NCBI GenBank assembly: GCA_022447685.1
Contig: JAKVAO010000001.1
Location: 22,939-86,938, forward strand
Direction of reading: 5' to 3'
Length of the DNA: 64,000 bases
From: Candidatus Caenarcanales bacterium
GTDB lineage: Bacteria; Cyanobacteriota; Vampirovibrionia; LMEP-6097
The notes beneath the pieces are model-generated. The model saw nothing but the letters and a program-made list of their open reading frames with translations, had not been told where the DNA came from and made no database searches. Every line of letters begins with the position of its first letter. The first letter of the stretch is position 1. A program made the position numbers and the translations under genes. Below are positions 6,530-21,498 of the stretch, piece after piece.

Positions 6530-8341
6530 CTAGATATTTACCTGGAGTTCATCATACTTGATAGGTTCACCAAATATCATATTGAGACCGAAACCAACTT
6601 GGTTTCTAACTGTATCGTAACTAGCCCTGAATTTGAAATCTTCTGGACCAAACTCTGCTCTGAGCTGGTTTTGTGTGATTTCATTATCATCCATGTTGAA
6701 GTTCGTGAAAGCTCCAATTGTGAGCCACTTGTTGATTTCAAGGTCGCCATCGAAGACTAAGGCGTGATTACCATCAACGAATTGATCAAAGATAAATGGT
6801 GACTCACCACCAATAGCAGCATATAAGTAATCTATCTCGAATTGAAGTTTATCGAAAGATGCTTCAATAGCAGGACCAAATCTGTTGATAACGTTAATAT
6901 CACCAGTGTCATAGAATCTCAAAGAACCCGCATTCCTTAATCTGAGAGCAACATTGAAGCCCTCATTTCCAAGTCTAAATAGTGGGTTCGTGTAGAATTG
7001 AATACTTTCTTCAAATCTGAAACCTTCTGCTCCAGCTGAGCCTCTAATGCCAGATTCATCTGCTCTTGCCCCTAATAAATCATCTCTTCTTTCACTAGAA
7101 AATAAGTCAACGTTATCTTCAACATAGCCAGCTATACTTCTTATCTGCGCTCCTCTTTCATCGAAAAGCCAATGATTAACTCTTAATCTATGCGCTAATT
7201 CATAATTTTGTTTAATTTGTGAATTACTGAACATTTGGTTTCGGTTAAATTGGTTCACGAGAGCGTTCGTTTCAAAACCCCAACCCAATTGTTGATGAGC
7301 ATTTAATATAAATCTATTTTCAAGAGACCCATAACCTGCCATGATTGCAGTGGTATCACCAGGCGTATTGAAACTGGCTATAGCACCACCACCAAAGCCA
7401 AAATCATTACCGAGTTGTAAGACTGGAGCAAGGGCAAAAGTATTACTACCAAATGATTTATAGAATCTTGGACCTAAGGCAAAGCCACCAATTCTTTCTC
7501 TTTGACCAATTACTGGTCCTCTAAATCTAGTATTTGCTGTTTCACCAACTGTAGTAGTAAGTTCTATTGGAGAAGGAATACTGAGCTTATCATTGATAGC
7601 AATTCTTGCACCTTGGATTTTTAAGTTGTTTTGTTTTTTGGTTTGATCATAAAGAATTCTTTTGGCTGAATATCTTAGTGAGCTTTTGTTCTCGTGTATA
7701 TCTTTCCAGCGTAGCTTTCTTCTCTCGTGATAGAACCTTAACTGTTGTGAATATCTTGTTTGCACGGCATTACCTGGTACGTATACTGTTATTGGTTCAT
7801 TAGTTACCAAGTAACCATTGTCAAAAACTAATTTGATTTTGTCGTCTTTATCTTCGTCCTTAGCTTCTTTGAACTCTGATTTACTGAAGCGTGCTTTAAG
7901 TCTAATCTGGTCAGAGAATATTTTAGGATTCTCCATGGTATATGTCTTGGTGTCGGTTTTGAAAGCAACATGCTCACCATAGGCAACACTTTCGTTTTGT
8001 GTTACTTTGACATCACCATCAGCTTCAATTAAATTCTCTAATCCATCAAAGCTTAGAGTGTCGGCTTCAATCTTGATATTTTTGTCTCTGATTATTGCAA
8101 TGGCATTACCATCAGCAAGATAAAAATCTTGAGTTTCATTATAGGTTAGCTCATCTGCAATAATTTCAACATAGGGCTTTTTACCTTGTGATTCTTCTTC
8201 TATAGAAAGCTCTTGAGTTTGATTTTCTTTTTTATCTTTTTTTGCGAAAACCATTCCAGAAGAAGATATGCAGAGCAAAGCTAATGAACTTAGTAATATT
8301 TTGGATTTATGGTTTGCAAAAAGCACAGACCCTCTAATCAT
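6530..8341 (-). CDS. LptD/OstA-like outer-membrane protein (putative LPS-assembly)
   Basis: Signal peptide, then an OstA-like N-terminal beta-jellyroll segment (LTYNETQDFYLADGNAIAI...EADTLSFDG...EADGDVKV), then a long Gly/aromatic-rich beta-strand region. Shorter than typical LptD. Confidence 0.4.
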   Translation of the reverse strand: MIRGSVLFANHKSKILLSSLALLCISSSGMVFAKKDKKENQTQELSIEEESQGKKPYVEIIADELTYNETQDFYLADGNAIAIIRDKNIKIEADTLSFDGLENLIEADGDVKVTQNESVAYGEHVAFKTDTKTYTMENPKIFSDQIRLKARFSKSEFKEAKDEDKDDKIKLVFDNGYLVTNEPITVYVPGNAVQTRYSQQLRFYHERRKLRWKDIHENKSSLRYSAKRILYDQTKKQNNLKIQGARIAINDKLSIPSPIELTTTVGETANTRFRGPVIGQRERIGGFALGPRFYKSFGSNTFALAPVLQLGNDFGFGGGAIASFNTPGDTTAIMAGYGSLENRFILNAHQQLGWGFETNALVNQFNRNQMFSNSQIKQNYELAHRLRVNHWLFDERGAQIRSIAGYVEDNVDLFSSERRDDLLGARADESGIRGSAGAEGFRFEESIQFYTNPLFRLGNEGFNVALRLRNAGSLRFYDTGDINVINRFGPAIEASFDKLQFEIDYLYAAIGGESPFIFDQFVDGNHALVFDGDLEINKWLTIGAFTNFNMDDNEITQNQLRAEFGPEDFKFRASYDTVRNQVGFGLNMIFGEPIKYDELQVNI

Positions 8342-8408
8342 AAAACAGATGTCTATGAAATGGAGTTTTTTTTTGATTAAGGATATAATTGAGATAATAC
8401 AAATTTAT

Positions 8409-9524
8409 ATGTTTTTGAAGTCCATCAATTTATTGAATTATAGAAATTATCAAGAGTTATTTTTGGAATTAAATAATCAAAAACTCATTATTCTTGGTGA
8501 TAATTCTCAGGGGAAAACTAATTTACTTGAGGTTGTTCAAATTTTGAGTCTTGGTAAGTCCAAAAGAGCTTCTAAAGACGCACAGTTGGTTAATTTCGAT
8601 GCTGATAATGCTGTGATTCACGCAAAGGTGGATAAAGGTTTGGGGGAAGAATTAGCAATAGCGCTAATGATACGCAAAAGTGGTAGAAGAACTCTCAAGA
8701 TTAATGAAGTCACCAAAAAACCTTCTGATATTACTCATAAAATCTATACAGTTTCTTTTATGGTAGATGATTTACATATGGTGGCTGGCTCTCCAAGTGA
8801 GCGTCGCGATTGGTTAGATTCTATTCTAAGGCAGCTTAATATTCAGTATAAGGATGTTTACGCTAAGTTTGAGAAGGCTCTTAGCCAAAGAAATAGTTTT
8901 ATTAAATCTCTAGTTGAGCAAGGTGTTTATTTCCCTAATCTTAATGATAGTCATAGAGAACAATTAAGTATTTGGAATGAAATGTTTATCGAAGCAGCAA
9001 ATACTGTGACTAAGTATAGAAAAGCCTTAATCCAAGAATTAAATCCTGTTATTGCAAGTCATTATAAAAATATTTCAGGCAAAGAAGATGCTTTGGAGGT
9101 GAGCTATGCTGGGACTGAACTTCAAGAAGCTGACCTGGATAAGAGGCTTAGAGTTGATTTCATCAGATCATATACGACTTTAGGACCACACCGTGATGAT
9201 ATTAGTTTTGTTCTGAAGTCTCATAATGCTGGTGATTTTGCAAGCCAAGGTGAGAAAAGATCTATAGTTCTTGCTTCTAAATTATCTGAGATTGACTTAC
9301 TCAAGGCTAAGCATAATATTAGACCTATATTGCTTTTGGATGATGTTCTTGCTGAATTGGATGAGTCAAGGCAGGATCACCTTTTGGATGCTGTAGACTC
9401 TGACACTCAAGTGATTATTACAACCACTCATTTGGGTAAGCATTTGCAAAAATGGAGTGAAAATGCTCAAATTATAAATATAAAGTCTGGTGAAATCGTA
9501 GAGAAAGCTTTGCTGGGAGTATAA
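8409..9524 (+). CDS. recF: DNA replication and repair protein RecF
   Basis: Walker A LIILGDNSQGKTNLLE (the RecF GxNGxGKTN motif), signature and Walker B LLLDDVLAELD near the C-terminus. Start chosen at the internal Met (MFLKSINLLNYRNY). The ORF-track start at 8268 would overlap the upstream convergent gene. Confidence 0.85.
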   Translation: MFLKSINLLNYRNYQELFLELNNQKLIILGDNSQGKTNLLEVVQILSLGKSKRASKDAQLVNFDADNAVIHAKVDKGLGEELAIALMIRKSGRRTLKINEVTKKPSDITHKIYTVSFMVDDLHMVAGSPSERRDWLDSILRQLNIQYKDVYAKFEKALSQRNSFIKSLVEQGVYFPNLNDSHREQLSIWNEMFIEAANTVTKYRKALIQELNPVIASHYKNISGKEDALEVSYAGTELQEADLDKRLRVDFIRSYTTLGPHRDDISFVLKSHNAGDFASQGEKRSIVLASKLSEIDLLKAKHNIRPILLLDDVLAELDESRQDHLLDAVDSDTQVIITTTHLGKHLQKWSENAQIINIKSGEIVEKALLGV

Positions 9525-9890
9525 ATGAAAAGAGAAAAGCAAGAAAACTTAATACCAATAAATAAACTTTTTTCTCAAATTACAAAAAATATTGATAAGA
9601 ACAAGCATCAGTCTATTTTTGAACTCTGGCGTGAACTTCAGTGGGAGAATTTAGGTTTACCGGATATCGTAAAACGTAAGACTTTTGCTGATAGGGTTAC
9701 TCGTGACCGTAAACTTATTGTCGGAGTAAAACATGCTGCTCTAGCAAATGAACTTCAATTTCATAAAGAAAAGCTGTTGAATTTACTTAACCAAGCAATT
9801 AAAAATGCTAATAAAAGTATTCACTTGAAGGAAAATTTTTCTCAAGACTATGTAAAAGAGCTTAGAGCCCTTGTTTTTGAGCTTAGATAA
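9525..9890 (+). CDS. DUF721-type protein commonly found downstream of recF
   Basis: 121 aa, LWRELQWENLGLPDIVKRKTF...LIVGVKHAALANELQF pattern, placed immediately after recF. Confidence 0.5.
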   Translation: MKREKQENLIPINKLFSQITKNIDKNKHQSIFELWRELQWENLGLPDIVKRKTFADRVTRDRKLIVGVKHAALANELQFHKEKLLNLLNQAIKNANKSIHLKENFSQDYVKELRALVFELR

Positions 9891-9982
9891 CTACACTTAC
9901 AATTGTATGTCAAATCTTGCCTCAAGATAATATTGTATTTACATTATGGTGGCTTCAATAACTTGGTGGAGTATGGAATTTT

Positions 9983-10573
9983 TTGAAAAGGCAGCTTTCG
10001 ATGGTTCGCCGGGCAGATGCCAAGGTGATGGATCTTGAAAGTAAGCAAAGGCTCAAATCTATTGCCAAAGGTGATACTTACGAATCCGCTGGGTCTTTAG
10101 GTAGTCTTGCCAAGCAAGAACCTGAAAATTACTTACAAACTTTGGGTGAAAAGAATTTAGACTCTGAGTCAGAAGCTCTTTTGGAGAAGGCTAAACAATT
10201 CCCTGGACACAAAAGTGCAAAGATTTATTATAGAGAGAATGGAAAACCTTTATTGGTGATTATTAATCCTGATAAACTTGATGAAAATATTGCCCCTAAA
10301 TCAAAAATTCTTCCTAGTTCAGCTACATACGAGAAAAAAGAAGCTAATGGTAACGATGTGTTGAAAATTCATGAACTACCAGAAGATCAGGATATTGTAA
10401 TTATTAACGGTCGTTATAACTTATATCACCCTGGTGGATTTTTAAAAGCAGCTACAAACTTGGAGACCAGAAGGTATTTAGATTTTGCAATAACAAAAGA
10501 TAATGAATTGATTTTAAATCAAGGTTCTACATCTAAAGCTAAAATTCAAACTTTAAGTTCTGATACATTATAG
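9983..10573 (+). CDS. hypothetical protein
   Basis: 196-aa ORF with no recognisable motif. Confidence 0.35.
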   Translation: MKRQLSMVRRADAKVMDLESKQRLKSIAKGDTYESAGSLGSLAKQEPENYLQTLGEKNLDSESEALLEKAKQFPGHKSAKIYYRENGKPLLVIINPDKLDENIAPKSKILPSSATYEKKEANGNDVLKIHELPEDQDIVIINGRYNLYHPGGFLKAATNLETRRYLDFAITKDNELILNQGSTSKAKIQTLSSDTL

Positions 10574-10576
10574 GTA

Positions 10577-11116
10577 GTGAAATATTTTTTAAATATTATA
10601 TTTATTTGCTTAATAATATTGCTTGGGACTTCTTGTTCAGAGGAATTGGCGAATAAAACTTTAAAGCAACTTGCTGGTGAGACTCTCAGAACCAAAATGC
10701 TTTTCAAAATAGAATATAGAGAGTTTTTTAAAGACAGAATTACTGAATACCGTTTTTTTGAAGAACCTCTTTTGAATACTACTGTTATCCATGATCCAGG
10801 TGTTCAGGATAGTTCATTTACAGCTTTTGATACTCAGCTTGTGAAAATCACCAGTACTCGCCACTATAAGGCTAAAGCCATTCATAATAAACTTAAAAAT
10901 TTAAAATATAAAAATACTTTCCCTTGGAAAGAAGATTTCAAAGATAGAGGAGACGTTGTGAAAGTTTATTGCACTCAAGACGCTATACCTGTCCTAGCTG
11001 ACAAAGACGGTAATTATAAAGCGGTGCCATTATCCAAGGTCTTTATTTTTTATACTGGTCATATTAATGAAGAGCCTCAAGTCTTTAAAGATATTCTAAG
11101 TCTGATAAAAAATTAG
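10577..11116 (+). CDS. hypothetical lipoprotein
   Basis: N-terminal signal with lipobox LLGTSC|S. Confidence 0.4.
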   Translation: MKYFLNIIFICLIILLGTSCSEELANKTLKQLAGETLRTKMLFKIEYREFFKDRITEYRFFEEPLLNTTVIHDPGVQDSSFTAFDTQLVKITSTRHYKAKAIHNKLKNLKYKNTFPWKEDFKDRGDVVKVYCTQDAIPVLADKDGNYKAVPLSKVFIFYTGHINEEPQVFKDILSLIKN

Positions 11117-11138
11117 AGCTTTGCTAAAATAAAATAGC

Positions 11139-11867
11139 ATGACAGAACTTTTAGAGAAATCCGTAGTTAAGATTGAAGATCTTAAAGCTGACTTGGGTCC
11201 TTTGGGATATATGGAGCTTTTGGATACTATGGGAGATGACCTTAGTATTGTTAACGCTGCTAGAGTTTCTTATAACAAAATCTCTGATAACTTTGAAGCT
11301 AAGGATAAGAAGCTTGTGAAGTTCTTGGCTAAACATAAGCACTGGACTCCATTTGAACAAAATGCTATTAAGTTTAGAGTTAAATGTCCAATCTATATCG
11401 CCCGTCAGTGGATGAAGCACAGATGTTGGGTTTTTAATGAAATTAGTGCAAGATATACCGTCTTTGATAACACTATTTATACTCCAGAAGCTTTCAGAGA
11501 GCAGGCTGAGAAGAATAAACAAGCAAGTGTTGAAGCTTCAGATGAATTGAATCAAGCTGAGGCAAACAAGATTTATGAAAATGCTTACAAAGTATCTTTA
11601 GATGCTTACAATAAACTTCTTGATCTAGGAGTCTGCCGTGAACAGGCTAGAGGGGTATTGCCTGTTGGTTCTCATACTGAATTTATTACTACTGTTAACC
11701 TAAGAAATTATATGCACTGGTATAACTTAAGAGCACCTAAAGATGCTCAGTGGGAAATTCAACAATACGCTAAGGCGTCTATAGAGCTTGTGAAGACTAA
11801 ATTCCCTGTTGCTATTGAGTGTTTCGAGGAATTGAAGCACGAAGAACTTGAAGAAGCTAAAATATAA
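11139..11867 (+). CDS. thyX: FAD-dependent thymidylate synthase ThyX
   Basis: Single ThyX domain with the ThyX signature variant WMKHRCWVFNEISARY (R/K-H-R-x7-S-x-R-Y) and VNAARVSY. Confidence 0.8.
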   Translation: MTELLEKSVVKIEDLKADLGPLGYMELLDTMGDDLSIVNAARVSYNKISDNFEAKDKKLVKFLAKHKHWTPFEQNAIKFRVKCPIYIARQWMKHRCWVFNEISARYTVFDNTIYTPEAFREQAEKNKQASVEASDELNQAEANKIYENAYKVSLDAYNKLLDLGVCREQARGVLPVGSHTEFITTVNLRNYMHWYNLRAPKDAQWEIQQYAKASIELVKTKFPVAIECFEELKHEELEEAKI

Positions 11868-11870
11868 TTA

Positions 11871-12902
11871 GTGTTTTTAGTTTTTGGGAAAATCATACTT
11901 TTACTTGCAGCTATTTTAATAGTCTGTTTGTGGTTTACTAATGCGGTTGAAAACTTAGGAGTTAGGCTCAAGCTCGGAGAACAAGTTGTTGGTAGCTTGC
12001 TTGCTGCTATTGGAACGGCTTTGCCTGAAACTCTCTTGCCTATTATTGCAATTATGCTTGCCGGTGTTCATAGCCAAGGCGATCCGAAAACTGAAATTGC
12101 TATTGGTTCTATTATTGGGGCTCCGTTCCTATTATCTACACTTGCATTGTTTTTATTAGGACTTGCGGTTTTAGTTAATTACCAGAAAAGAAAAAATCTT
12201 GATCTCAAAGTCTGTCACAAGCATATAACCAAAGATTTAAGTTATTTTTTGCTTGCATTATTGGTAGCTGTATCTGCAACTTTTTTTCAGACTCAAGTGA
12301 TTAAAACATCTTTTGCTGTTGTATTGGTTGCTATATATGTTATTTACTTTATCACTACTCTGAGGGAGGGAAGTGAGGCTGCTCACGATGAAGCTGAAGA
12401 CGATGTTGATCAGTTATATATTTCGAGCTTCTCTGTTGCTGGTTTCCGTTTGCCGTCTAATTTATTTTGGATGATTTTCCAGCTTTTCTTGTCTTTGGCA
12501 GGGATTGTTGTTTTTGCTCATGAGTTTATTCTAGAAATTGAGAAAGCATCAATGGCTTTAAATGTTAGTCCATTGATTTTGAGTTTGATCATTGCTCCGA
12601 TTGCAACAGAGCTTCCAGAGAAAGTTAATAGTTGGTTTTGGGCAAGTTCAGGTAAGGATGGCTTAGCACTTGGAAATATAACCGGCGCTATGGTTTTTCA
12701 ATCTGCAATACCTTGTGCTGTGGGGGTTAGTTTGACTCCTTGGAATTTAGATTCTCATACAATTTTCTGTGTAATTTTGACTATACTTTCAGCTTCAATA
12801 ATGCTTTTTTCATTAAAAGTTTTTAAAAAAGTACATGCGGCAACATTAACTTTTATGGGATTCCTGTATTTGCTTTATTTAGTTGCTATAATCCTATTCT
12901 AG
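11871..12902 (+). CDS. CaCA-family Ca2+/cation antiporter (YrbG-like)
   Basis: Two alpha-repeat motifs (GTALPETLLPI and APIATELPEKVNS) separated by a cytoplasmic acidic loop. About 10 TM segments. Confidence 0.6.
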   Translation: MFLVFGKIILLLAAILIVCLWFTNAVENLGVRLKLGEQVVGSLLAAIGTALPETLLPIIAIMLAGVHSQGDPKTEIAIGSIIGAPFLLSTLALFLLGLAVLVNYQKRKNLDLKVCHKHITKDLSYFLLALLVAVSATFFQTQVIKTSFAVVLVAIYVIYFITTLREGSEAAHDEAEDDVDQLYISSFSVAGFRLPSNLFWMIFQLFLSLAGIVVFAHEFILEIEKASMALNVSPLILSLIIAPIATELPEKVNSWFWASSGKDGLALGNITGAMVFQSAIPCAVGVSLTPWNLDSHTIFCVILTILSASIMLFSLKVFKKVHAATLTFMGFLYLLYLVAIILF

Positions 12903-12940
12903 GTTTTTAAGATTTATTCTTAAGGAGATTCTTAAATCAT

Positions 12941-13828
12941 ATGACTCAACATATTACAGGTGAAATTTTAGGACAGTCCGTTCATGTGGACACTCTTTAT
13001 TATGCATGGGCTTCTATGGCAGTTATTCTAGCTGTAGCTATATTCTTGAGCGCTGGTTTAAGTAATGACCCTGAGAAATATGGTGCAAGACAGCTTATTT
13101 CTGAAGGTTTGTATTCTTTTTTTGCTTCATTGGTTAGAGACCAAATTGGTAAGCGTGGAGAGAGATATATTGCACTTATAGGATCTATATTTATTTTTAT
13201 TTTGGTGAATTATTATGCTGGGCTTCTTCCATGGAAACTTGGAGAGTTTTTCCCATGGTGGCCAAAGCTTCCATCTGAGCATGGAGCACACGCTGCAGGG
13301 GCTCATACTACTGCTACTGCTCACGCTGTTGAAGCTCATGGAGCTGCAGTTGCAGAGCATGTTCATTCAGCAAGTGAATCTGTAGCTAGCCATGCTGCTC
13401 ATATCTGGCATGGTGCTAGTACTTGTGCTGATATTAATGTTCCAGCAGCACTCGCTATTCTTGTAGTTGTGATTTATTTCTTCTCAGGTGCAATGATTGG
13501 TGGTTGGAAGTATATTCAAATGTTTTTACCTATTAATTACAACAAAGGTAAAGGTATTAGCTTAAATTTAATGTGTCTAATTGAAATCATGGATTTAGCT
13601 ATTAGACCACTTACTCTTACACTTCGACTTTTTGCAAATACAGTTGCTGGTGAGACTTTACTTGCTACATTTATAGGTTTAGTTGCTTTAGTTCTACCTA
13701 TAGTTGTTCTAGGTTTTGAGATGTTTGTAGGTGTTTTACAAGCATTCTTATTCACTATACTTACTTGTGTTTATGTTGGTGGTGCGGTGCAGCATGCTGA
13801 GCATCTTATCCATGATGAGCATCATTAA
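12941..13828 (+). CDS. atpB: F-type ATPase subunit a paralog with His/Ala-rich insertion
   Basis: C-terminal IRPLTLTLRLFANTVAGETLL (the essential Arg helix of subunit a) and LQAFLFTILTCVYVG...EH align with E. coli AtpB. The unusual 60-aa loop HGAHAAGAHTTATAHAVEAHGAAVAEHVHSASESVASHAAHIWH is an insertion. No other atp genes are adjacent. Confidence 0.7.
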   Translation: MTQHITGEILGQSVHVDTLYYAWASMAVILAVAIFLSAGLSNDPEKYGARQLISEGLYSFFASLVRDQIGKRGERYIALIGSIFIFILVNYYAGLLPWKLGEFFPWWPKLPSEHGAHAAGAHTTATAHAVEAHGAAVAEHVHSASESVASHAAHIWHGASTCADINVPAALAILVVVIYFFSGAMIGGWKYIQMFLPINYNKGKGISLNLMCLIEIMDLAIRPLTLTLRLFANTVAGETLLATFIGLVALVLPIVVLGFEMFVGVLQAFLFTILTCVYVGGAVQHAEHLIHDEHH

Positions 13829-13971
13829 TTAGATCAGCATCTGAACTTAGTCTACTTCGTTTTTTATGATTTTCTAATACTCAAGCTAAACTAGGCTCCG
13901 TTTACCCAATCATAAAATGCCTTGTGTCTTAAGCCCAGCTACTAATCTAAAAAAATACATAATCTGTATTT

Positions 13972-14895
13972 TTGCTATACTTTAGTCTACAAGTGTTTCT
14001 TAAACATTCTTTACACATATTAGCTGAAATTTTACCGGTCTTCTTAATAGCGGTAATTTGCTCTTCGTTAATAGATCTTTATCTACCGAATAACTATTTT
14101 GAAAAAATTGAGCAAAGCTTCATCGCAGGTTCACAATTTAAATCCAAGCTTGGTCTTATAGTTGCAGCTATACTTGGTGCTTTAATTCCCATCTGTACCT
14201 GTGGCATGATTCCTCTTGCTATAGGTCTTTTAAGAAAGAAGCTTAACTGGAAATATATTTTGGCTTTTTTGCTTGCTGGTAATGCTTGTAGTATTTTTGC
14301 TTTGATTTTGAATTTGGGGGTTCTAGGTTGGGAATCAACTATATGGCGTTTTAATTTTGCGGTCTTGTTTGCAGTTATCAATGTGATATTATTTTCTTTA
14401 CTGTATAGTGAATCAATTGAAAATATTATTGAAAGCAAGCTTCAAGAAACTGAAGAAAAGAAACACTGTTGCGGTCCTAAAGTTTCTAAATTAAAGAAAA
14501 TATGGTCTGACTTAAAAGAAACTAGCTTTCAGTTTCTACCATGGATAATTTTTGCAGTTTTAGTCGCAAGCCTAATGCACTTTAATCATGATTTTGTTTT
14601 AGCTAAAACAGGAGAACTTTTACAAAATGAGTTGATTAGCCCATTTTTTCTTTCTTTGATTGCTTTTCCACTTTATCTCTGCGCTGGTGCTGATGTTGCC
14701 ATGAGTGCTGAATTCTTAGATTTAGGAATTGCACTAGGTTCAGTTTTAGCTTTTATGACTGCAAGCCCTGGAGTGAATTTCACTACTTTGGTTGTTTATA
14801 AACAGGCTTTTGATTTACGCGTGGCTATAGCACTTACGGTTTTTCCTGTTGTGGTTATAAGTTTACTTGGCTTGATTTTTAATTTGCTTACTTAG
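13972..14895 (+). CDS. permease, DUF318-like (CxC-containing predicted permease)
   Basis: Polytopic membrane protein with PICTCGMIPLAIGLL and a second half containing CAGADVAMS. Resembles the two-repeat DUF318 permeases. Confidence 0.45.
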   Translation: MLYFSLQVFLKHSLHILAEILPVFLIAVICSSLIDLYLPNNYFEKIEQSFIAGSQFKSKLGLIVAAILGALIPICTCGMIPLAIGLLRKKLNWKYILAFLLAGNACSIFALILNLGVLGWESTIWRFNFAVLFAVINVILFSLLYSESIENIIESKLQETEEKKHCCGPKVSKLKKIWSDLKETSFQFLPWIIFAVLVASLMHFNHDFVLAKTGELLQNELISPFFLSLIAFPLYLCAGADVAMSAEFLDLGIALGSVLAFMTASPGVNFTTLVVYKQAFDLRVAIALTVFPVVVISLLGLIFNLLT

Positions 14896-14916
14896 TTTTA
14901 AAGAATTAAAATATAT

Positions 14917-17016
14917 ATGAATATGAGTGTGAATGTGGAAGATTTAAATCTATTAAAAGAAAAATACTCTGAACTACAAAGTAAATTAAAACATTGGAGT
15001 CATAAATACTATATTGAAAATATAAGTGAAGTCGAAGATGCTGTCTATGACGCTCACATTGAGGAGCTTAAAGTCTTAGAGGCAGAGTATCCAAATTTAA
15101 TTGAGGCAGATAGTATCACTAAAATTATAGGCTCCGGTTTTTATCAGACTAGTTTTACTAAAACATATCATTTGGAGAAAATGATGAGTCTTGATAATGC
15201 TTTTGGTGAAGAGGATATTAGGGATTGGGAAGCTAAAATTAATAGAATGATAGGCGAAGAAACACCTCGTCAATATGTTTTTGAGTTGAAGATTGATGGC
15301 TTGAGTATTGCGATTGATTATAAAAATGGCAAACTTTATCGTGGTGCTACTCGTGGCAACGGTAAAGTGGGCGAAGATGTTACTGCTAACTTGATGACGA
15401 TAAAATCTTTACCTAAGAAGATTCCTGTAGAGCTTTTGGTGCAGCAAGATTTTTCGATTCGTGGTGAAGTTTATTTGCCGAAAGAAGATTTTAAGAAAAT
15501 TAATGCTGAGCGTGAGAAACAAAGTCTAGATCTTTATGCTAATCCTCGTAATACTGCTTCTGGAGCGTTAAGGCAGCTTGACCCTAAAGTTACTGCTTCT
15601 CGTAATTTGGATGCTATTTTTTATAATTATTTTCCTTATAATAATTTAGGCTATGCTGAGACTGAGAAGGCTAAGTCTTCTATCGCTTCAATTAATGAGC
15701 ATTATAGCTCCCTAGAATATCTTGAAAAACTAGGCTTTCACACGAATAAAGAACATAATTATCTTTGTAACAATATAGATCAAGTAATTAAATTATATAA
15801 AGAATGGCAAGAGAAAAAAGATACTTTAGATTTTGAAATTGATGGTGCTGTAGTTAAAGTTAACCAATTAGATTTACAAAAAACTTTAGGTGAAACGAGT
15901 AAAGCTCCTCGCTGGGCTACTGCTCTAAAATTTAGTGCTGAAGAAGCCTTAACCCGTGTTATATCTATAGATATGGAAGTTGGTAGAACTGGAGCTATTA
16001 CTCCTGTCGCTAATTTGGAGCCAGTTTTACTGGCGGGAACTACTGTTAAAAGAGCTACAATTCATAATTTTGACCAAGTAGATAGGCTTGGGGTGAAAGT
16101 TGGAGACTTTGTTCTAGTGCGTAAAGCTGGAGAAATTATTCCTGAGATTATTAAGATAGAAGAAGATAGGCGTGGACAAAGTATCAACGGTGAAACTATT
16201 GAGCTTGTTGATATTTCTCGTCCTGGACACTGTCCTGTCTGTGGTACTGCTCTAGAGCAGGAAGATACTATACTCAGATGCCCTAATATTGTAGGTTGTG
16301 CAGCACAGATACAGAGAAGAATAGAACACTGGGCTTCTAAAAAAGCTATGGATATCGCTGGGCTTGGTCCAGTAGTAGTAGAACAATTACTAGTTGAAAA
16401 ATTAATTAAGAATCCTTTTGATCTTTATAAACTTAAATTTGATGACTTAGCCCCATTGGAGCGTATGGCTGAGAAATCTGTGAATAATTTACTTATTGCT
16501 TTAGAAAACAGTCGCGAAATGCCTTTTCATAGATTCCTCCATGCTTTAGGAATTAAACATGTCGGTTTAAATGTTTCAGAATTGATCGCCTCAGTTTATC
16601 CAAGTCTCTTTGAGCTTGAAAAAGAAGTTCTAGGAAACCATGGTGTAGATTTGTTGAAGTTAGATGGTCTTGGAGAGAAGATTTTAAATTCTTTAAAACA
16701 GTTTTTTGAATCAGAGATTTATGCTCAGGTTAAACAAGATTATATTGATTTAGGTTTTGATTTTAAAGAATTAGTGAAACGGGAACTTTCTGATAAGTTT
16801 GCAGGATTGATTTTTGTTATTACTGGAACTCTTTCAGAGAGTAGATCATACTTTGAGAAGATTATTAAAGATAATGGCGGTAAGGTGAGTTCAAGTGTTT
16901 CCAAAAAGACTTCATATTTACTTTGTGGTAATGAAGCTGGCTCTAAGCTTAGTAAAGCCCAGGACTTGGGTGTGAAAGTGCTTTCTGAAGAGAAATTTAG
17001 AGAACTAAATACCTAA
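14917..17016 (+). CDS. ligA: NAD-dependent DNA ligase
   Basis: Adenylation motif ELKIDGLSIA (KxDG), an OB fold, a Zn finger (CPVCGT...CPN...C), HhH repeats and a C-terminal BRCT domain. 699 aa. Confidence 0.95.
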   Translation: MNMSVNVEDLNLLKEKYSELQSKLKHWSHKYYIENISEVEDAVYDAHIEELKVLEAEYPNLIEADSITKIIGSGFYQTSFTKTYHLEKMMSLDNAFGEEDIRDWEAKINRMIGEETPRQYVFELKIDGLSIAIDYKNGKLYRGATRGNGKVGEDVTANLMTIKSLPKKIPVELLVQQDFSIRGEVYLPKEDFKKINAEREKQSLDLYANPRNTASGALRQLDPKVTASRNLDAIFYNYFPYNNLGYAETEKAKSSIASINEHYSSLEYLEKLGFHTNKEHNYLCNNIDQVIKLYKEWQEKKDTLDFEIDGAVVKVNQLDLQKTLGETSKAPRWATALKFSAEEALTRVISIDMEVGRTGAITPVANLEPVLLAGTTVKRATIHNFDQVDRLGVKVGDFVLVRKAGEIIPEIIKIEEDRRGQSINGETIELVDISRPGHCPVCGTALEQEDTILRCPNIVGCAAQIQRRIEHWASKKAMDIAGLGPVVVEQLLVEKLIKNPFDLYKLKFDDLAPLERMAEKSVNNLLIALENSREMPFHRFLHALGIKHVGLNVSELIASVYPSLFELEKEVLGNHGVDLLKLDGLGEKILNSLKQFFESEIYAQVKQDYIDLGFDFKELVKRELSDKFAGLIFVITGTLSESRSYFEKIIKDNGGKVSSSVSKKTSYLLCGNEAGSKLSKAQDLGVKVLSEEKFRELNT

Positions 17017-18846
17017 CTAACCCATCATTGCATTCTTACGGTGAGCTTTCTTATCAAGAATCTTCTTGCGTAGGCGAATTTTCTCAGGAGTAACCTCAAC
17101 TAACTCTTCATCATTTATATAAACTAAAGCTTCTTCTAATTTAACTTGTCTAGGAGCTTTTAACTGAACTAAAACATCAGCTCCAGCTGATCTCATGTTA
17201 GTGAGTGCTTTTTCTTTAGTAAGGTTTAGCTCAATATCTTGTACTTTATTGGCTTCACCAACTATCATTCCTTTGTAAACTTTATCTGTAGGCTTAACGA
17301 AGAAAACACCTCTGTCTGAGAAGTTTTCAAGAGCATAACTAGTAGCTGCTCCCTCTTCAAGGTTCACTAGTACACCCATTCTTACTTTATCGATGTCACC
17401 AGCATACGGCTTATACTCATAGTAAGAGTGAGTCATGATACCAGTACCTTTAGTAATTCTGATGAACTCAGTGCTGAAACCAATTAGACCACGAGTAGGA
17501 ACTAAGAATTTAAGAAGAGTACGTCCATGAAGTGTATTCATGAAAGTCATCTCAGCTTTTCTCTTACCAAGTCTTTCTATACAAGAACCAGAGAATTCAT
17601 CTTCTACATCTATAATTAATTCTTCATAAGGCTCATGAATTTTACCGTCGATATTTTTCTGTATTACTCTTGGTTTTCCTACTTGGAATTCATAACCCTC
17701 TCTTCTCATAGTTTCTATAAGAATACCTAAGTGAAGTTCACCACGACCTGCTACTAGAAATGAATCAGTGTTTTCTGTAGGAGTAACTTTTAATGCTACA
17801 TTAGTTTCTAATTCTTTATCTAGTCTATCTTTGATCTGTCTTGAAGTTACGAACTTCCCTTCTAAACCAGCAAATGGACTAGAGTTAACTGAGAAAATCA
17901 TTTCTAGAGTAGGCTCATCAACTTTAATAGAAGGAAGCGCTTCAGTTAAAGTCGCGTCACAGACTGTATCTCCGATATTACCTTCAGGCATACCTGCGAG
18001 CATAACTATCATCCCAGCGCTTGCTGTTTCTAATTCAACTTTTTCTAAACCATGAAAACCATAGATCTTTGCGATTTTCTTTTTAGAAATACTTTTTTCA
18101 CCATCTTCGTCTGTTTTGATGAGGTTCATTTGTTGGTTAACAGAAACTGTACCGTTTAAAATCCTTCCTACAAGTAATCTTCCCAAGTATTCATTAGAGT
18201 CTAAACTTACAGTTTGGAATAGGAAAGGCTCTTCAATATTACCTTCTGGAGGAGGAACTTCTTTCAAGATAGTATCTAGAATTACTTCCATGCCAGCATC
18301 TTCATCTTCCAGTTCAGCTTTAGCCATACCATTTACACCAGAAGCGTATACGATAGGGAATTCGATTTGATCATCATCAGCGCCTAGATCTATGAATAGT
18401 TCAAGAACTTCATCAATTACTCTTGCTGGATCTGAATTAGGCTTATCAACTTTATTGATAACTAAGATCGGTTTTAAACCTTGCTCAAAAGCTTTCTTCA
18501 AAACAAATCTAGTCTGAGGCATAGGTCCTTCAAAGGCATCTACCAAAAGTAAACAACCTTGCACCATACCTAGGACACGTTCTACCTCTCCACCGAAGTC
18601 CGAGTGACCTGGGGTATCCACGATATTAATAGTTTGGTCTTTATACTTAACAGAAGTGTTTTTACTTAGAATCGTAATGCCACGCTCTTTTTCTAGAGGG
18701 TTACTATCCATAACGCAAACTTCATGTTCTTTATGTGCAGCGAAGCAATTAGTCTGCTCTAAAATAGCGTCTAAAAGAGTTGTCTTTCCGTGGTCAACGT
18801 GAGCGATAATCGCGATATTTCTAATATTTTCAGTTTTTGGAGGCAT
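17017..18846 (-). CDS. typA: translational GTPase TypA/BipA
   Basis: NIAIIAHVDHGKTTL G1, DTPGHSDF G3, NKVD G4, EF-G-like domains and a C-terminal BipA-specific region. 609 aa. Confidence 0.95.
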   Translation of the reverse strand: MPPKTENIRNIAIIAHVDHGKTTLLDAILEQTNCFAAHKEHEVCVMDSNPLEKERGITILSKNTSVKYKDQTINIVDTPGHSDFGGEVERVLGMVQGCLLLVDAFEGPMPQTRFVLKKAFEQGLKPILVINKVDKPNSDPARVIDEVLELFIDLGADDDQIEFPIVYASGVNGMAKAELEDEDAGMEVILDTILKEVPPPEGNIEEPFLFQTVSLDSNEYLGRLLVGRILNGTVSVNQQMNLIKTDEDGEKSISKKKIAKIYGFHGLEKVELETASAGMIVMLAGMPEGNIGDTVCDATLTEALPSIKVDEPTLEMIFSVNSSPFAGLEGKFVTSRQIKDRLDKELETNVALKVTPTENTDSFLVAGRGELHLGILIETMRREGYEFQVGKPRVIQKNIDGKIHEPYEELIIDVEDEFSGSCIERLGKRKAEMTFMNTLHGRTLLKFLVPTRGLIGFSTEFIRITKGTGIMTHSYYEYKPYAGDIDKVRMGVLVNLEEGAATSYALENFSDRGVFFVKPTDKVYKGMIVGEANKVQDIELNLTKEKALTNMRSAGADVLVQLKAPRQVKLEEALVYINDEELVEVTPEKIRLRKKILDKKAHRKNAMMG

Positions 18847-19207
18847 CGTTTCACGATTTATCTTACTCTATTTTGCTTATGAAATCTGTTTTTATTTAGC
18901 TCACAAATTAAAAATAGATAATCTTTCTAAAAATATTGTCAAAAAATCACAAGAAGCTCTTTGTATATTTATCAAATTCATTGTTTATATGGAGGCCTGT
19001 GCGTGAGTGATAACCTGAAATTAATTTATTTGTATCTTAAAAGTACCCCTAAGTGTGTTGATAACTTTTACAAACTAGGCTCAGTGCTAAGAGATAGGGA
19101 TAAAGCAATTATAGATAACTTTAGAAAATTAGAGAGAAACTCAGCAGATTTTCGAGATGACAACAGAAAACCTAGAAACTAGTATGGCTTTGCTATACTT
19201 CTAGATT

Positions 19208-19753
19208 ATGAAGCTGTTTTTCACCTCTGTGCTTTGTGCCTTAATTTTTGTTAGTTTTTCGTGTTCAAATAATAAAGACTTATCTAAATATGATAATACT
19301 CGCTTGCCAGTAGGTCCACTTCAGTATCAAGCTTTGGAGGATTGGGATCTAGGAACTCCTGATAATTTTATGAGGCTTGAACAGTTTCAGATTCAAGACA
19401 ATTCTGAGCTAGCAGTTTATTTCTTGCCTGGAGAAGCTGGATCTGTTGACGCTAATATTGCTAGATGGAAGAAGCAGTTTCTAGCTAATGAAGCCAGAAA
19501 AGTTGTTTTTGAAAAAAAATATAACTACAAATCTATACCTCTTACTAAAATTATGATTGAGGGTGACTATAAGGAGATGGTGAATCCTTTTGATCCTAGT
19601 TCCGAGAAAAAAATCAAGGATTCTTGGGCTATGTTTGCAGTAGTAGCTGAACTGGAAGAAGGAAAGTGGTTTTTCAAAGCTCTAGGTCCTAAGGAAGAAT
19701 TACTTTCATCCCAGGAAGATATTGATGAATTTGTAAGCACTTTTCGTATTTAA
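19208..19753 (+). CDS. hypothetical lipoprotein
   Basis: Signal peptide with lipobox VSFSC|S. Confidence 0.4.
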   Translation: MKLFFTSVLCALIFVSFSCSNNKDLSKYDNTRLPVGPLQYQALEDWDLGTPDNFMRLEQFQIQDNSELAVYFLPGEAGSVDANIARWKKQFLANEARKVVFEKKYNYKSIPLTKIMIEGDYKEMVNPFDPSSEKKIKDSWAMFAVVAELEEGKWFFKALGPKEELLSSQEDIDEFVSTFRI

Positions 19754-19770
19754 AGATTGATTGAATATTA

Positions 19771-20586
19771 ATGAACTTTGAGCAAATTTTTAATTTAACT
19801 AATTTCCTGATTCTAGTAAATTCTATTTTGTTAATATTAATTACTGCTTTAATATTCTCTCTTTACCAGAAAGATTCTAAAGCTTCATTTGAGAGAAACT
19901 TCTTTGCAAATATCAAAGGACAGGGAATTTGGGGGGAGGAACAGTTAATAAATTTATTGCGAGAAACTCTTTCCCCTAAGCAATTTGAATTACAATACCA
20001 GCTTGACCCTAAAGATGATTATTTTGTTGATGCCGCTGTAAAACTGCCTTTGGCTGAATCTGAATCAATACTTTTACCTATTGACTCTAAGTTGCCCTTA
20101 GAAGATTATTTGAGCTTTCTTAATTCTGGAGCTGAAATTAACTATGCTAATGCAAGGAAATATATAAAAAAGATAGAATCTCGTCTTAAGCAAGAAGCCA
20201 AGTCTGTGCATTCAAAGTATATTAGAGTCCCTTATACAACTGACTTTGCAATAATTTTTATTCCCGTAGAATCTCTTTATTACCTACTGGTGCAGAATAG
20301 TAATTTCATATATCAGCTAAGAAATGAGTATCGAATCATACTTGCAAGTCCCTCAAGTCTTTCAACGCTATTAAATGGTATTCAGATATCTTTTAAATAC
20401 TCAAATTTCACAAAAGACTCTAGAGAGTTCTATGAATCTTATGAACTTTTAAGTAGAGACTTGGATTCAGTATCTAATTCTTTAGTAAAATCTGAAAAAA
20501 AATTGGATGAACTTTATAAAGAGATTCAAGAGATTAAGTCCAGGACTAAGTCTATGAAAAATTCTTCTCTAAGCATGCACCAGTAA
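19771..20586 (+). CDS. rmuC: RmuC-family DNA recombination protein (putative)
   Basis: N-terminal TM anchor, then PIDSKLPLEDYL and AIIFIPVESLYYLL, which resemble RmuC conserved blocks. Confidence 0.5.
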   Translation: MNFEQIFNLTNFLILVNSILLILITALIFSLYQKDSKASFERNFFANIKGQGIWGEEQLINLLRETLSPKQFELQYQLDPKDDYFVDAAVKLPLAESESILLPIDSKLPLEDYLSFLNSGAEINYANARKYIKKIESRLKQEAKSVHSKYIRVPYTTDFAIIFIPVESLYYLLVQNSNFIYQLRNEYRIILASPSSLSTLLNGIQISFKYSNFTKDSREFYESYELLSRDLDSVSNSLVKSEKKLDELYKEIQEIKSRTKSMKNSSLSMHQ

Positions 20587-21498
20587 AGACAAAGCATCCA
20601 AAAATTTCAGGGAACCTGTTTTAATTCTAAGTTCATAGTCAAGTAATTTTTCAAGTAGTTTTTCAATGTGAACTAAATTCATATTTCTACTATCTTTTTT
20701 GAGGTGATAGACTCTGCCAGATTTGATATTGAGAACACTTGCAATTTGATCATCAGAGAATTTTTCCTGACTAAGCAGCAATACTGTTTTGAATGTATCG
20801 AGATTGCTCTGTAGCAGGCTCAGTAAGCCAAGATTATTTTCTTGTAGTTTATCTTTTTTTATTTTTTGAAGTTCATTGATGGCTTTTACTTGTTGATTAC
20901 TTGCAAGGTATTTAATAAATTCAAAAACATCATAGTTACTTAGGCAATATTCTTTTAGGTGACTGATTTTGAGCGGATTATGTATGAATGCCACTCTCTC
21001 GATTTCTTTGTATAGATGAGCTGAATCCTCGCAGCCAATATAATCAATAAACTCCCTAAGGTCTGGAGTCGATACTTTTATATCACTATTGTCTTTTAAT
21101 GCTTGACTGAGCCATTGAAGGCACTCTTTTTGCTCCCAGGATTTAAATTTTTTGAATTGTTCAATTTTGCATTCTTTGACCTGCTTCAGTTCTTTAAATA
21201 ATTTCGTTGTGGCTTTTACACTCTCTGCTTCGAGAACTATTGTTTTACTTTGATTACTGATAGTCTCTAAAAAAAACTTTATATACTTATCTTCTTGCTT
21301 TTCAGCAAATATCGATAGATTTTTGAAAATAAGGTTTTGTTTGTTATTACTATCAAACAAAGAGTTACCCTGATTTAGTATCGAGCATATATCCTCTAGT
21401 TTACTTGCATCATGAATTTTGAAATCTTCGTCATTACCCAGCTCTTTTAACCTGAGTTGACGTCTAAATCTATCTTCACCGTAGATAAGGTAAATCAT
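20569..21498 (-). CDS. holA: DNA polymerase III delta subunit
   Basis: N-terminal MIYLIYGEDRF (HolA IYLLYGEE motif) and C-terminal LLDYELRIKTG, which matches the B. subtilis HolA MDYEMKTG region. 309 aa. Confidence 0.7.
   Translation of the reverse strand: MIYLIYGEDRFRRQLRLKELGNDEDFKIHDASKLEDICSILNQGNSLFDSNNKQNLIFKNLSIFAEKQEDKYIKFFLETISNQSKTIVLEAESVKATTKLFKELKQVKECKIEQFKKFKSWEQKECLQWLSQALKDNSDIKVSTPDLREFIDYIGCEDSAHLYKEIERVAFIHNPLKISHLKEYCLSNYDVFEFIKYLASNQQVKAINELQKIKKDKLQENNLGLLSLLQSNLDTFKTVLLLSQEKFSDDQIASVLNIKSGRVYHLKKDSRNMNLVHIEKLLEKLLDYELRIKTGSLKFLDALSLLVHA

Follow-up and report, generated by a model that had tools for sequence, protein, structure and literature searches.

We analysed a 64,000-nucleotide stretch of contig JAKVAO010000001.1 from Candidatus Caenarcanales bacterium (hereafter the window, whose positions are used throughout) and found that the gene at 12941..13828 on the forward strand encodes subunit a of an F-type ATP synthase, stands apart from other atp genes and carries a His/Ala-rich loop in a linker that is periplasmic by homology. 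The protein most likely forms the stator half of Fo in what would be the only F-type ATPase of the organism. We consider it probable that the gene is the regular, functional a-subunit of this organism, an orthologue of cyanobacterial AtpI and E. coli AtpB present in a single copy. Since the a-subunit and gamma genes of the clade both stand alone and one metagenome-assembled genome (MAG) appears to hold both, we conclude that the atp operon of the clade is dispersed, the two genes lying apart from each other and from alpha. The gene has the following features, in which E. coli residue correspondences were assigned by motif and groups 1 and 2 are the two tiers of relatives described below.

12922..12927, forward strand: Shine-Dalgarno-like AAGGAG, read from the sequence, 13 nt 5' of the ATG and within the 38-nt gap that follows the stop codon (12900-12902) of the preceding CaCA gene
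12941..13828, forward strand: atpB/atpI (subunit a), a complete coding sequence of 295 amino acids with an ATG start and a stop codon (open reading frame; PF00119 and TIGR01131 above cut-off; AlphaFold2 and Foldseek)
13274..13402, forward strand: His/Ala-rich expansion of the periplasmic linker between helices aH3 and aH4, residues 112-154, with 15 Ala and 9 His (composition, alignment); His157 follows in WHG
13406..13438, forward strand: WHGASxCADIN motif that starts aH4, residues 156-166 (conserved columns in groups 1 and 2)
13529..13579, forward strand: extra segment PINYNKGKGISLNLMCL in the cytoplasmic aH4-aH5 loop, specific to group 1 (alignment)
13625..13654, forward strand: RLFANTVAGE in aH5, with Arg229, Asn233 and Glu238 probably matching E. 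coli aR210, aN214 and aE219 (alignment)
13718..13741, forward strand: aH6 with Glu260 at the presumed position of E. coli aH245 and Gln267 at that of aQ252 (invariant columns)
13793..13825, forward strand: C-terminal cytoplasmic His-rich tail HAEHLIHDEHH, with 5 His in 11 residues (sequence, clade alignment)

Profile scores, key residues and a six-helix fold all place the protein in the subunit a family, in agreement with the preliminary description of this DNA, which had recognized a subunit-a gene here by its RLFANTVAGE helix. The 295-amino-acid protein reaches 133.1 bits against the Pfam profile PF00119 (ATP-synt_A; cut-off 33.9) and 120.8 bits against TIGR01131 (cut-off 102.6). A comparison with the alternate F1Fo enzyme, or N-ATPase, which the preliminary description had proposed, led us to reject that assignment: TIGR03306 (altF1_A) gives 55.1 bits against a cut-off of 302.1, and the gene has no atp neighbours, so there is no atpDCQRBEFAG operon with atpQ and atpR.

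To place the protein among its relatives, we used a protein search of 5.8 billion proteins, which returned three tiers: the identical protein, group 1 (about 75 clusters, 51-88% identity, 250-306 amino acids) and group 2 (11 clusters, 38-45% identity, about 241 amino acids). Named members of both groups are labelled Candidatus Melainabacteria, and the best of the matches listed in GTDB representative genomes are Candidatus Caenarcaniphilales MAGs, at 68%. We accordingly assign the organism to a Caenarcaniphilales-like lineage of the Melainabacteria (Vampirovibrionia), a class that is sister to the cyanobacteria and not photosynthetic. The N-terminus MTQHITGEILGQ is kept among the orthologues in the alignment. 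Arg229, Asn233, Glu260 and Gln267 are invariant across 81 sequences, Glu238 is invariant in groups 1 and 2 and conserved in at least 90% of the broader set, and W156, G158, S160, D164 and N166 are invariant in groups 1 and 2 (N166 being invariant or nearly so overall). In the SADVN motif of E. coli, aN148 lines the periplasmic half-channel; by this motif we take D164 and N166 to correspond to aD146 and aN148. Because Arg229, Asn233, Glu238, Glu260 and Gln267 are all kept, pairing with a c-ring is expected, and judged by these residues the protein should still assemble against one. The AlphaFold2 model (mean confidence score, pLDDT, of 72.6) contains the six canonical helices at residues 16-38, 49-69, 71-103, 166-187, 210-247 and 252-292. 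Its top Foldseek matches are all subunit a, with template modelling (TM) scores of up to 0.74; the best match is the chloroplast a-subunit (TM 0.73), and the best structural matches comprise chloroplast, mycobacterial and Chloroflexus a-subunits.

Among known systems, cyanobacterial and chloroplast AtpI (spinach 6FKF/6VM4, chain a) is the best match in both sequence and fold. It has in common with the present protein the LLPWK and (S/A)PxxDIN motifs, the RLFxN Arg helix and a C-terminal His, and its linker has the ancestral form with LPHGE. The linker is, however, 11 amino acids long in AtpI and 60 here; the present protein has an extra WWP segment and the extra segment in the cytoplasmic loop, the latter occurring in group 1 and in neither group 2 nor the canonical a-subunits; and its gene is not followed by atpH (subunit c) and the rest of an atp1 operon.

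The isolation of the gene extends across the window. Pfam annotation of the 10 kb on either side shows no atp genes, in line with what the preliminary description had reported, and the whole 64 kb contain no F1-type Walker-A motif. We also built profile hidden Markov models (HMMs) for c, b', b, delta, alpha and gamma from melainabacterial subunits; none gave a match at E ≤ 1 in the six-frame open reading frames of the window (epsilon was not searched). The alpha model would probably also detect beta, and as a positive control the same models recover all six genes beside the a-subunit of locus L019, one of the loci of related genomes (L numbers) that we compared. The immediate neighbours are the following.

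11139..11867, forward strand: thyX (PF02511)
11871..12902, forward strand: CaCA-family cation antiporter (Na_Ca_ex), directly 5' of the a-subunit gene (two PF01699 matches)
13972..14895, forward strand (the start may be 13993): ArsP_1/DUF318 permease, directly 3' of the a-subunit gene (PF03773, 133.9 bits)
14917..17016, forward strand: ligA (NAD-dependent DNA ligase), at the end of a run from the a-subunit through DUF318 to ligA (Pfam domains on the identical contig L007)

The two flanking genes thus carry the identities first given to them, a CaCA antiporter and a DUF318 permease. Other genes within 10 kb are, by Pfam annotation, recF-like, dciA, bipA, rmuC and holA. Promoter and terminator scans around the a-subunit gene yielded counts not clearly above shuffled expectation and no convincing site; the operon structure is therefore read from the short gaps. 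At 8268-21498 of the window, a co-directional replication and repair run with very short gaps (recF-like, dciA, thyX and ligA, with rmuC and holA nearby) encloses the a-subunit gene and the two transporters. The DUF318 permease (13972-14895) has PICTCG in a predicted membrane segment and HCCGP in its central loop, both of which resemble thiol or metal ligands.

Both the stand-alone position and the neighbours are common to many related MAGs whose orthologues are 53-88% identical. In no sampled group-1 locus do c, b, delta, alpha or gamma lie within 10 kb of the a-subunit gene, and with the same HMMs c, b', b, delta, alpha and gamma were found at no group-1 or group-2 locus. The DUF318 permease directly follows the a-subunit in every sampled group-1 locus except L011, where 8.9 kb downstream of the a-subunit contain no ArsP match. 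Downstream of the permease, the window, L012-L014 and L096-L101 have ligA, and L001 and L002 have unannotated genes in its place. On the 5' side, the thyX-CaCA pair is kept in the window, L001, L009, L010 and L096-L101, with the antiporter gene adjoining the a-subunit gene in L001, L009, L010 and L096; its stop codon overlaps the a-subunit start in L001, and the gap from the a-subunit to DUF318 is 18 nt in L096. Group-2 loci (L004 9417-10729, L005 and L006) have another order, namely an atpZ-like gene (ATPase_gene1, just under the Pfam cut-off), an unannotated open reading frame of 133 amino acids, the a-subunit and then a convergent gene; they contain neither a c-subunit gene nor a His-rich loop.

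The canonical order a-c-b'-b-delta-alpha-gamma is present in L008, L019 (Gastranaerophilales), L089 (a 2.58-Mb contig), L090 and L091, and in a neighbour-joining tree, which is rough and has no support values, groups 1 and 2 fall together as sister to the canonical melainabacterial a-subunits. With a stand-alone position shared by relatives and a canonical operon in sister lineages, the suggestion made at the outset that this is a split operon with a relocated atpB is supported. We take stand-alone atpB genes in Helicobacter, Campylobacter and Aquifex, and the cyanobacterial atp1/atp2 split, to be comparable cases. Such split loci resemble the present one in having the a-subunit gene away from the remaining F1Fo genes of an enzyme that is otherwise complete; they differ in that here gamma, too, lies apart from alpha and beta, and the a-subunit lies between transporters and DNA-metabolism genes. 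Melainabacterial-type a-subunits also occur under the labels 'uncultured Gammaproteobacteria bacterium' and 'Proteobacteria bacterium' (L013, L017 and protein P0530, NBV97965.1), which are probably taxonomic mislabels.

The gamma subunit of the clade was found with a profile of canonical melainabacterial gammas, which we ran against 1.84 billion representatives (50%) and which led to cluster P0258; a second search then started from a member of this cluster. The second search returned about 95 clusters, several of them named Melainabacteria, with cyanobacterial gammas at the bottom of the list only. A gamma search seeded from L008 yielded canonical-lineage Melainabacteria only, and the three contexts read from it were all canonical. 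The lone gamma genes, recognized by context reading, are located as follows.

L092, 10001-10903: gamma
L093, 10001-10897: gamma
L094, 3233-4132: gamma
L102, 392-1282: gamma

In each of the four independent contexts read, gamma stands alone, with no alpha upstream and no beta downstream. Where upstream sequence is available and reads in the same direction, gamma is preceded by genes for an ABC ATPase and a SIS-domain protein, in that order, and followed by one for a pyrimidine-nucleoside phosphorylase. These gammas share 39-45% identity with canonical gammas. One pair of proteins connects the two lone genes: the group-1 a-subunit P0068 (MDD9897739.1) and the gamma P0422 (MDD9897417.1), the latter located on GCA_028817775.1, have the same organism name and accessions that are 322 apart, from which we infer that both belong to one MAG. 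We propose that the ancestral a-c-b'-b-delta-alpha-gamma operon was broken up in Caenarcaniphilales-like Melainabacteria, which would have left the a-subunit alone in a (thyX-CaCA-)a-DUF318-ligA array and gamma alone elsewhere, beside the pyrimidine-nucleoside phosphorylase gene.

These observations also bear on the alternative that the gene is a divergent paralog, as the preliminary description had suggested, or an orphan a-subunit working outside F1Fo, for instance as a proton path for the neighbouring transporters, with a canonical operon elsewhere in the genome. The physical separation from all other atp genes, the tight packing with two transporters and the low identity to canonical melainabacterial a-subunits (30-32% in BLAST alignments, 35-40% over gap-trimmed columns) would fit such a protein. 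However, the residues that are meaningful only against a c-ring are invariant, the protein belongs to the sister branch of the canonical a-subunits in the rough tree, and the gamma of the clade is equally divergent and equally alone, so that one dispersed enzyme fits, not a spare copy. In addition, there is one a-locus per melainabacterial assembly among the matches listed, and none of the listed group-1 or group-2 a-subunits has the 2.58-Mb contig with the canonical operon as its longest contig. We therefore consider a paralog very improbable. A lineage feature had instead been expected to show itself through a single atpB, a normal atpEFHAGDC block elsewhere, and a split and loop shared with related species; the split and loop are indeed shared, and the remaining genes do not form a normal block, because gamma is separate as well.

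Several points count against viewing the gene as the a-subunit of one complete but dispersed enzyme. The link between the a-subunit and gamma comes from one MAG only; no further accession-number link between the two was found, and tblastx comparison of the gamma loci with the window showed no shared region. The searches of relatives did not locate the clade's genes for c, b, delta, alpha, beta and epsilon, and although they showed no a-subunit of a second type in the clade, there is no complete genome among those covered. The completeness of the enzyme in this clade is thus argued from the conservation of the a-subunit and gamma together with a report on other Melainabacteria: Di Rienzi et al. 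2013 list 7-8 of the 8 subunits of the F-ATPase for Melainabacteria from gut and aquifer (PMC3787301, supplementary file 2), which according to the contexts read are the canonical-operon lineages. The supplements of Soo et al. 2014 contain no atp gene table.

The second distinctive property of the protein is the loop itself. The stretch from LLPWK to STCADIN comprises 60 amino acids, compared with 11 in the chloroplast a-subunit, and therefore corresponds to a net insertion of about 49 amino acids. The 60 amino acids first given for the His/Ala-rich insertion are thus the length of the whole stretch and too high for the net insertion. In the quoted peptide, EHGAH...IWHG, 10 of 46 residues are His, not 12 of 48 as first counted. 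Among six-frame open reading frames of at least 100 amino acids in the 64 kb, this is the sole 45-residue window with at least 6 His (background His 1.7%), and the binomial probability of at least 10 His in 45 residues is 3e-9 to 1e-6. The insert ends in HAAHIWHGASTCADIN, and the loop sits about 8-10 residues before the half-channel residues of WHGASxCADIN. By homology to solved structures, the loop is periplasmic, which bears on the question, left to topology prediction in the preliminary description, of the side on which it lies: in a phmmer alignment, residues 105-160 pair with linker residues 131-185 of 9itj_T. In the AlphaFold2 model, the loop has pLDDT values of 41-56, with a tentative helix at 112-130. 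Its calculated net charge is about -3 at pH 7.5 and about +5 at pH 5.5.

Among the orthologues, the loop varies strongly in length and little in character. The segment from WWP to W(H/E)G spans 2-59 amino acids across 74 group-1 clusters (median 13 over the 84 clusters of groups 1 and 2), and the window protein, with 47, is among the longest. Histidine richness recurs in about 74 orthologue clusters, with 1 to 12 His per loop, and the pooled loops of groups 1 and 2 consist of 23% His, 22% Ala, 9% Glu and 9% Gly and contain hardly any Lys or Arg. The shortest loops, of about 6 amino acids, mostly retain a core of the HGH or GHH type, and only that of P0056 (2 amino acids) is shorter. Group 2 has a fixed KLDNGEH of 7 amino acids, and canonical and chloroplast proteins have LP(H/Q)GE at this site, which suggests that the loop grew from an ancestral LP(H/Q)GE (LPHGE) seed. 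HxxH spacing occurs 75 times where 33 would be expected, a descriptive figure only, since the sequences are related.

At the DNA level, the loop has a guanine-plus-cytosine (GC) content of 0.52, compared with 0.36 in the rest of the gene and 35% in the window, and its first and second codon positions reach 81% and 60% GC. An origin by DNA slippage was considered and rejected, as Tandem Repeats Finder detected no tandem repeat in the loop. Compared with the 88%-identical orthologue of L096, the ratio of nonsynonymous to synonymous substitution rates (dN/dS) reaches 0.21 over 39 loop codons, with three indels there, and 0.056 over the rest of the gene. Taken together, the GC-rich codons in a 35% GC background, the lack of a repeat and the dN/dS ratio are evidence that the composition of the loop is probably under selection.

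The loop might be a tolerated low-complexity spacer without a specific role that drifts in length at a permissive aH3-aH4 insertion site, as its range of 2-59 amino acids among orthologues that are otherwise 50-90% identical, indels even between 88%-identical proteins and the low AlphaFold2 confidence would allow. Many Chloroflexota also carry unrelated inserts of 70-130 amino acids at the same linker, and the insert of Chloroflexus is partly disordered. A spacer free to drift, however, fits poorly with a constant His/Ala/Glu/Gly composition, almost devoid of Lys and Arg, in about 74 clusters, with GC-rich codons in an AT-richer background, with the absence of a slippage-type DNA repeat and with a dN/dS of 0.21, well below 1. 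For these reasons, we regard the spacer explanation as unlikely.

Insertions have entered the aH3-aH4 linker repeatedly, and His-rich forms of it arose on more than one occasion. The a-subunit of Chloroflexus aurantiacus (PDB 9ITJ) has an insertion at the homologous periplasmic linker; there, a 31-amino-acid insertion is partly disordered and aHis170/aAsp171 begin the inlet half-channel (PMC12002316). That insert is not His-rich, is held by a Cys135-Cys173 disulfide clamp and belongs to an enzyme with two a-subunits, whereas the present protein has no Cys on the aH3 side that could form a Chloroflexus-type clamp, the only nearby Cys being C162 of the conserved motif. The two inserts are unrelated in sequence and of independent origin. 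In Chloroflexota/Dehalococcoidia MAGs (L027, L032, L044 and L065, with the a-subunit at about 10001-10980 in each), the linkers are 70-130 amino acids long and some are strongly His-rich, that of L032 having 15 His in 116 residues.

In our view, the best-supported reading of the loop, which we hold tentatively and at somewhat less than an even chance, is a proton-collecting or buffering cluster at the periplasmic mouth of the channel. About 10 imidazoles and 4 carboxylates of the flexible loop would form a titratable cluster there, which would collect, buffer or hand over protons; the loop may also bind a divalent metal. Related Caenarcaniphilales are described as fermenters without respiration (PMC4040986), and the enzyme may therefore mainly pump protons out. 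The closest experimental precedent is the ATP6 protein of the ice worm Mesenchytraeus solifugus, whose His-rich C-terminal extension is thought to speed proton flux (PMC12035521, PMC6047255) and, once grafted onto E. coli AtpB, increased ATP synthesis about 5-fold (PMC12035521). Both are His-rich appendages on subunit a near a mouth of the proton channel. The ice-worm extension differs in being an 18-amino-acid C-terminal tail with alternating His on the matrix (exit) side, whereas the loop here is internal and periplasmic with an HxxH bias; the two show no sequence homology, and the present protein has a His-rich C-terminal tail of its own. Two points tell against a proton-collecting role, and against reading too much into the selection signature: the dN/dS of the loop comes from one pair and 39 codons, and the loop of some orthologues has only 2 residues, so a long loop is not essential.

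A second functional proposal is that the loop is a candidate site for divalent metal (Zn, Ni or Cu) that gates or caps the periplasmic half-channel or senses metal in connection with the DUF318 permease. The metal-binding loops of ZnuA, ZIP and CDF proteins are typically Asp/Ser/Gly-rich. The present loop has 21-23% His, contains Glu and is enriched in HxxH (75 against 33), and an HGH minimal core is mostly retained in the shortest loops; it is, however, Ala-rich and has no fixed ligand set. Because loop length and His number (1-12) vary, there is no fixed coordination site, and the His-spacing statistic ignores the relatedness of the sequences. Both the adjacency of the a-subunit and DUF318 genes and the His-rich loop occur in group 1 only, yet their co-occurrence amounts to one evolutionary event. 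The DUF318 protein resembles the SO_0444 Cu/Zn efflux family only weakly (88.8 bits against a cut-off of 300). A metal ion has been seen at the channel mouth of the P. aeruginosa a-subunit, where His and carboxylates coordinate it and mutation lowers ATP synthesis, and one has been proposed in Polytomella (PMC12796488). The P. aeruginosa site, however, lies on the cytoplasmic side and has four fixed ligands (E182, H186, D287 and H289), in contrast to the variable loop here. Weighing these points, we regard a dedicated metal site as a serious alternative, though a rather doubtful one.

The His-rich C-terminal tail adds to this picture. Its H285, E287 and H288 are invariant in groups 1 and 2, and together with the periplasmic loop it places histidines at both mouths of the channel. 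HAEHLIHDEHH occupies a position analogous to those of the tail that caps a metal in the P. aeruginosa a-subunit and of the ice-worm extension. A more far-reaching proposal, which we rate as decidedly improbable, is that loop and tail act jointly as a gate, responsive to pH and/or Zn, by which proton flow is tuned or blocked in an enzyme encoded by fully dispersed single genes. If true, such a His gate at two mouths could, for example, limit wasteful ATP hydrolysis or proton leak, and with dispersed genes the stoichiometric expression of the subunits would no longer be set by an operon.

In the full-text literature searched, we found no description of dispersed atp genes in Caenarcaniphilales or of the His-rich linker, which is no proof of absence. 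The clade is a bacterial example of scattering in the normally very stable atp operon, affecting at least the genes for subunits a and gamma, and raises the question of how subunit stoichiometry is achieved without translational coupling at the operon level. It also offers a natural series of loops that range in length from 2 to 59 residues and sit at the mouth of the Fo proton channel on the periplasmic side. This is timely after two reports in 2025, one of a His-rich subunit-a tail that boosts ATP synthesis and one of a metal ion that caps a proton half-channel. The length series provides a ready test of whether histidines on the surface of rotary ATPases serve as proton antennae or as metal gates.

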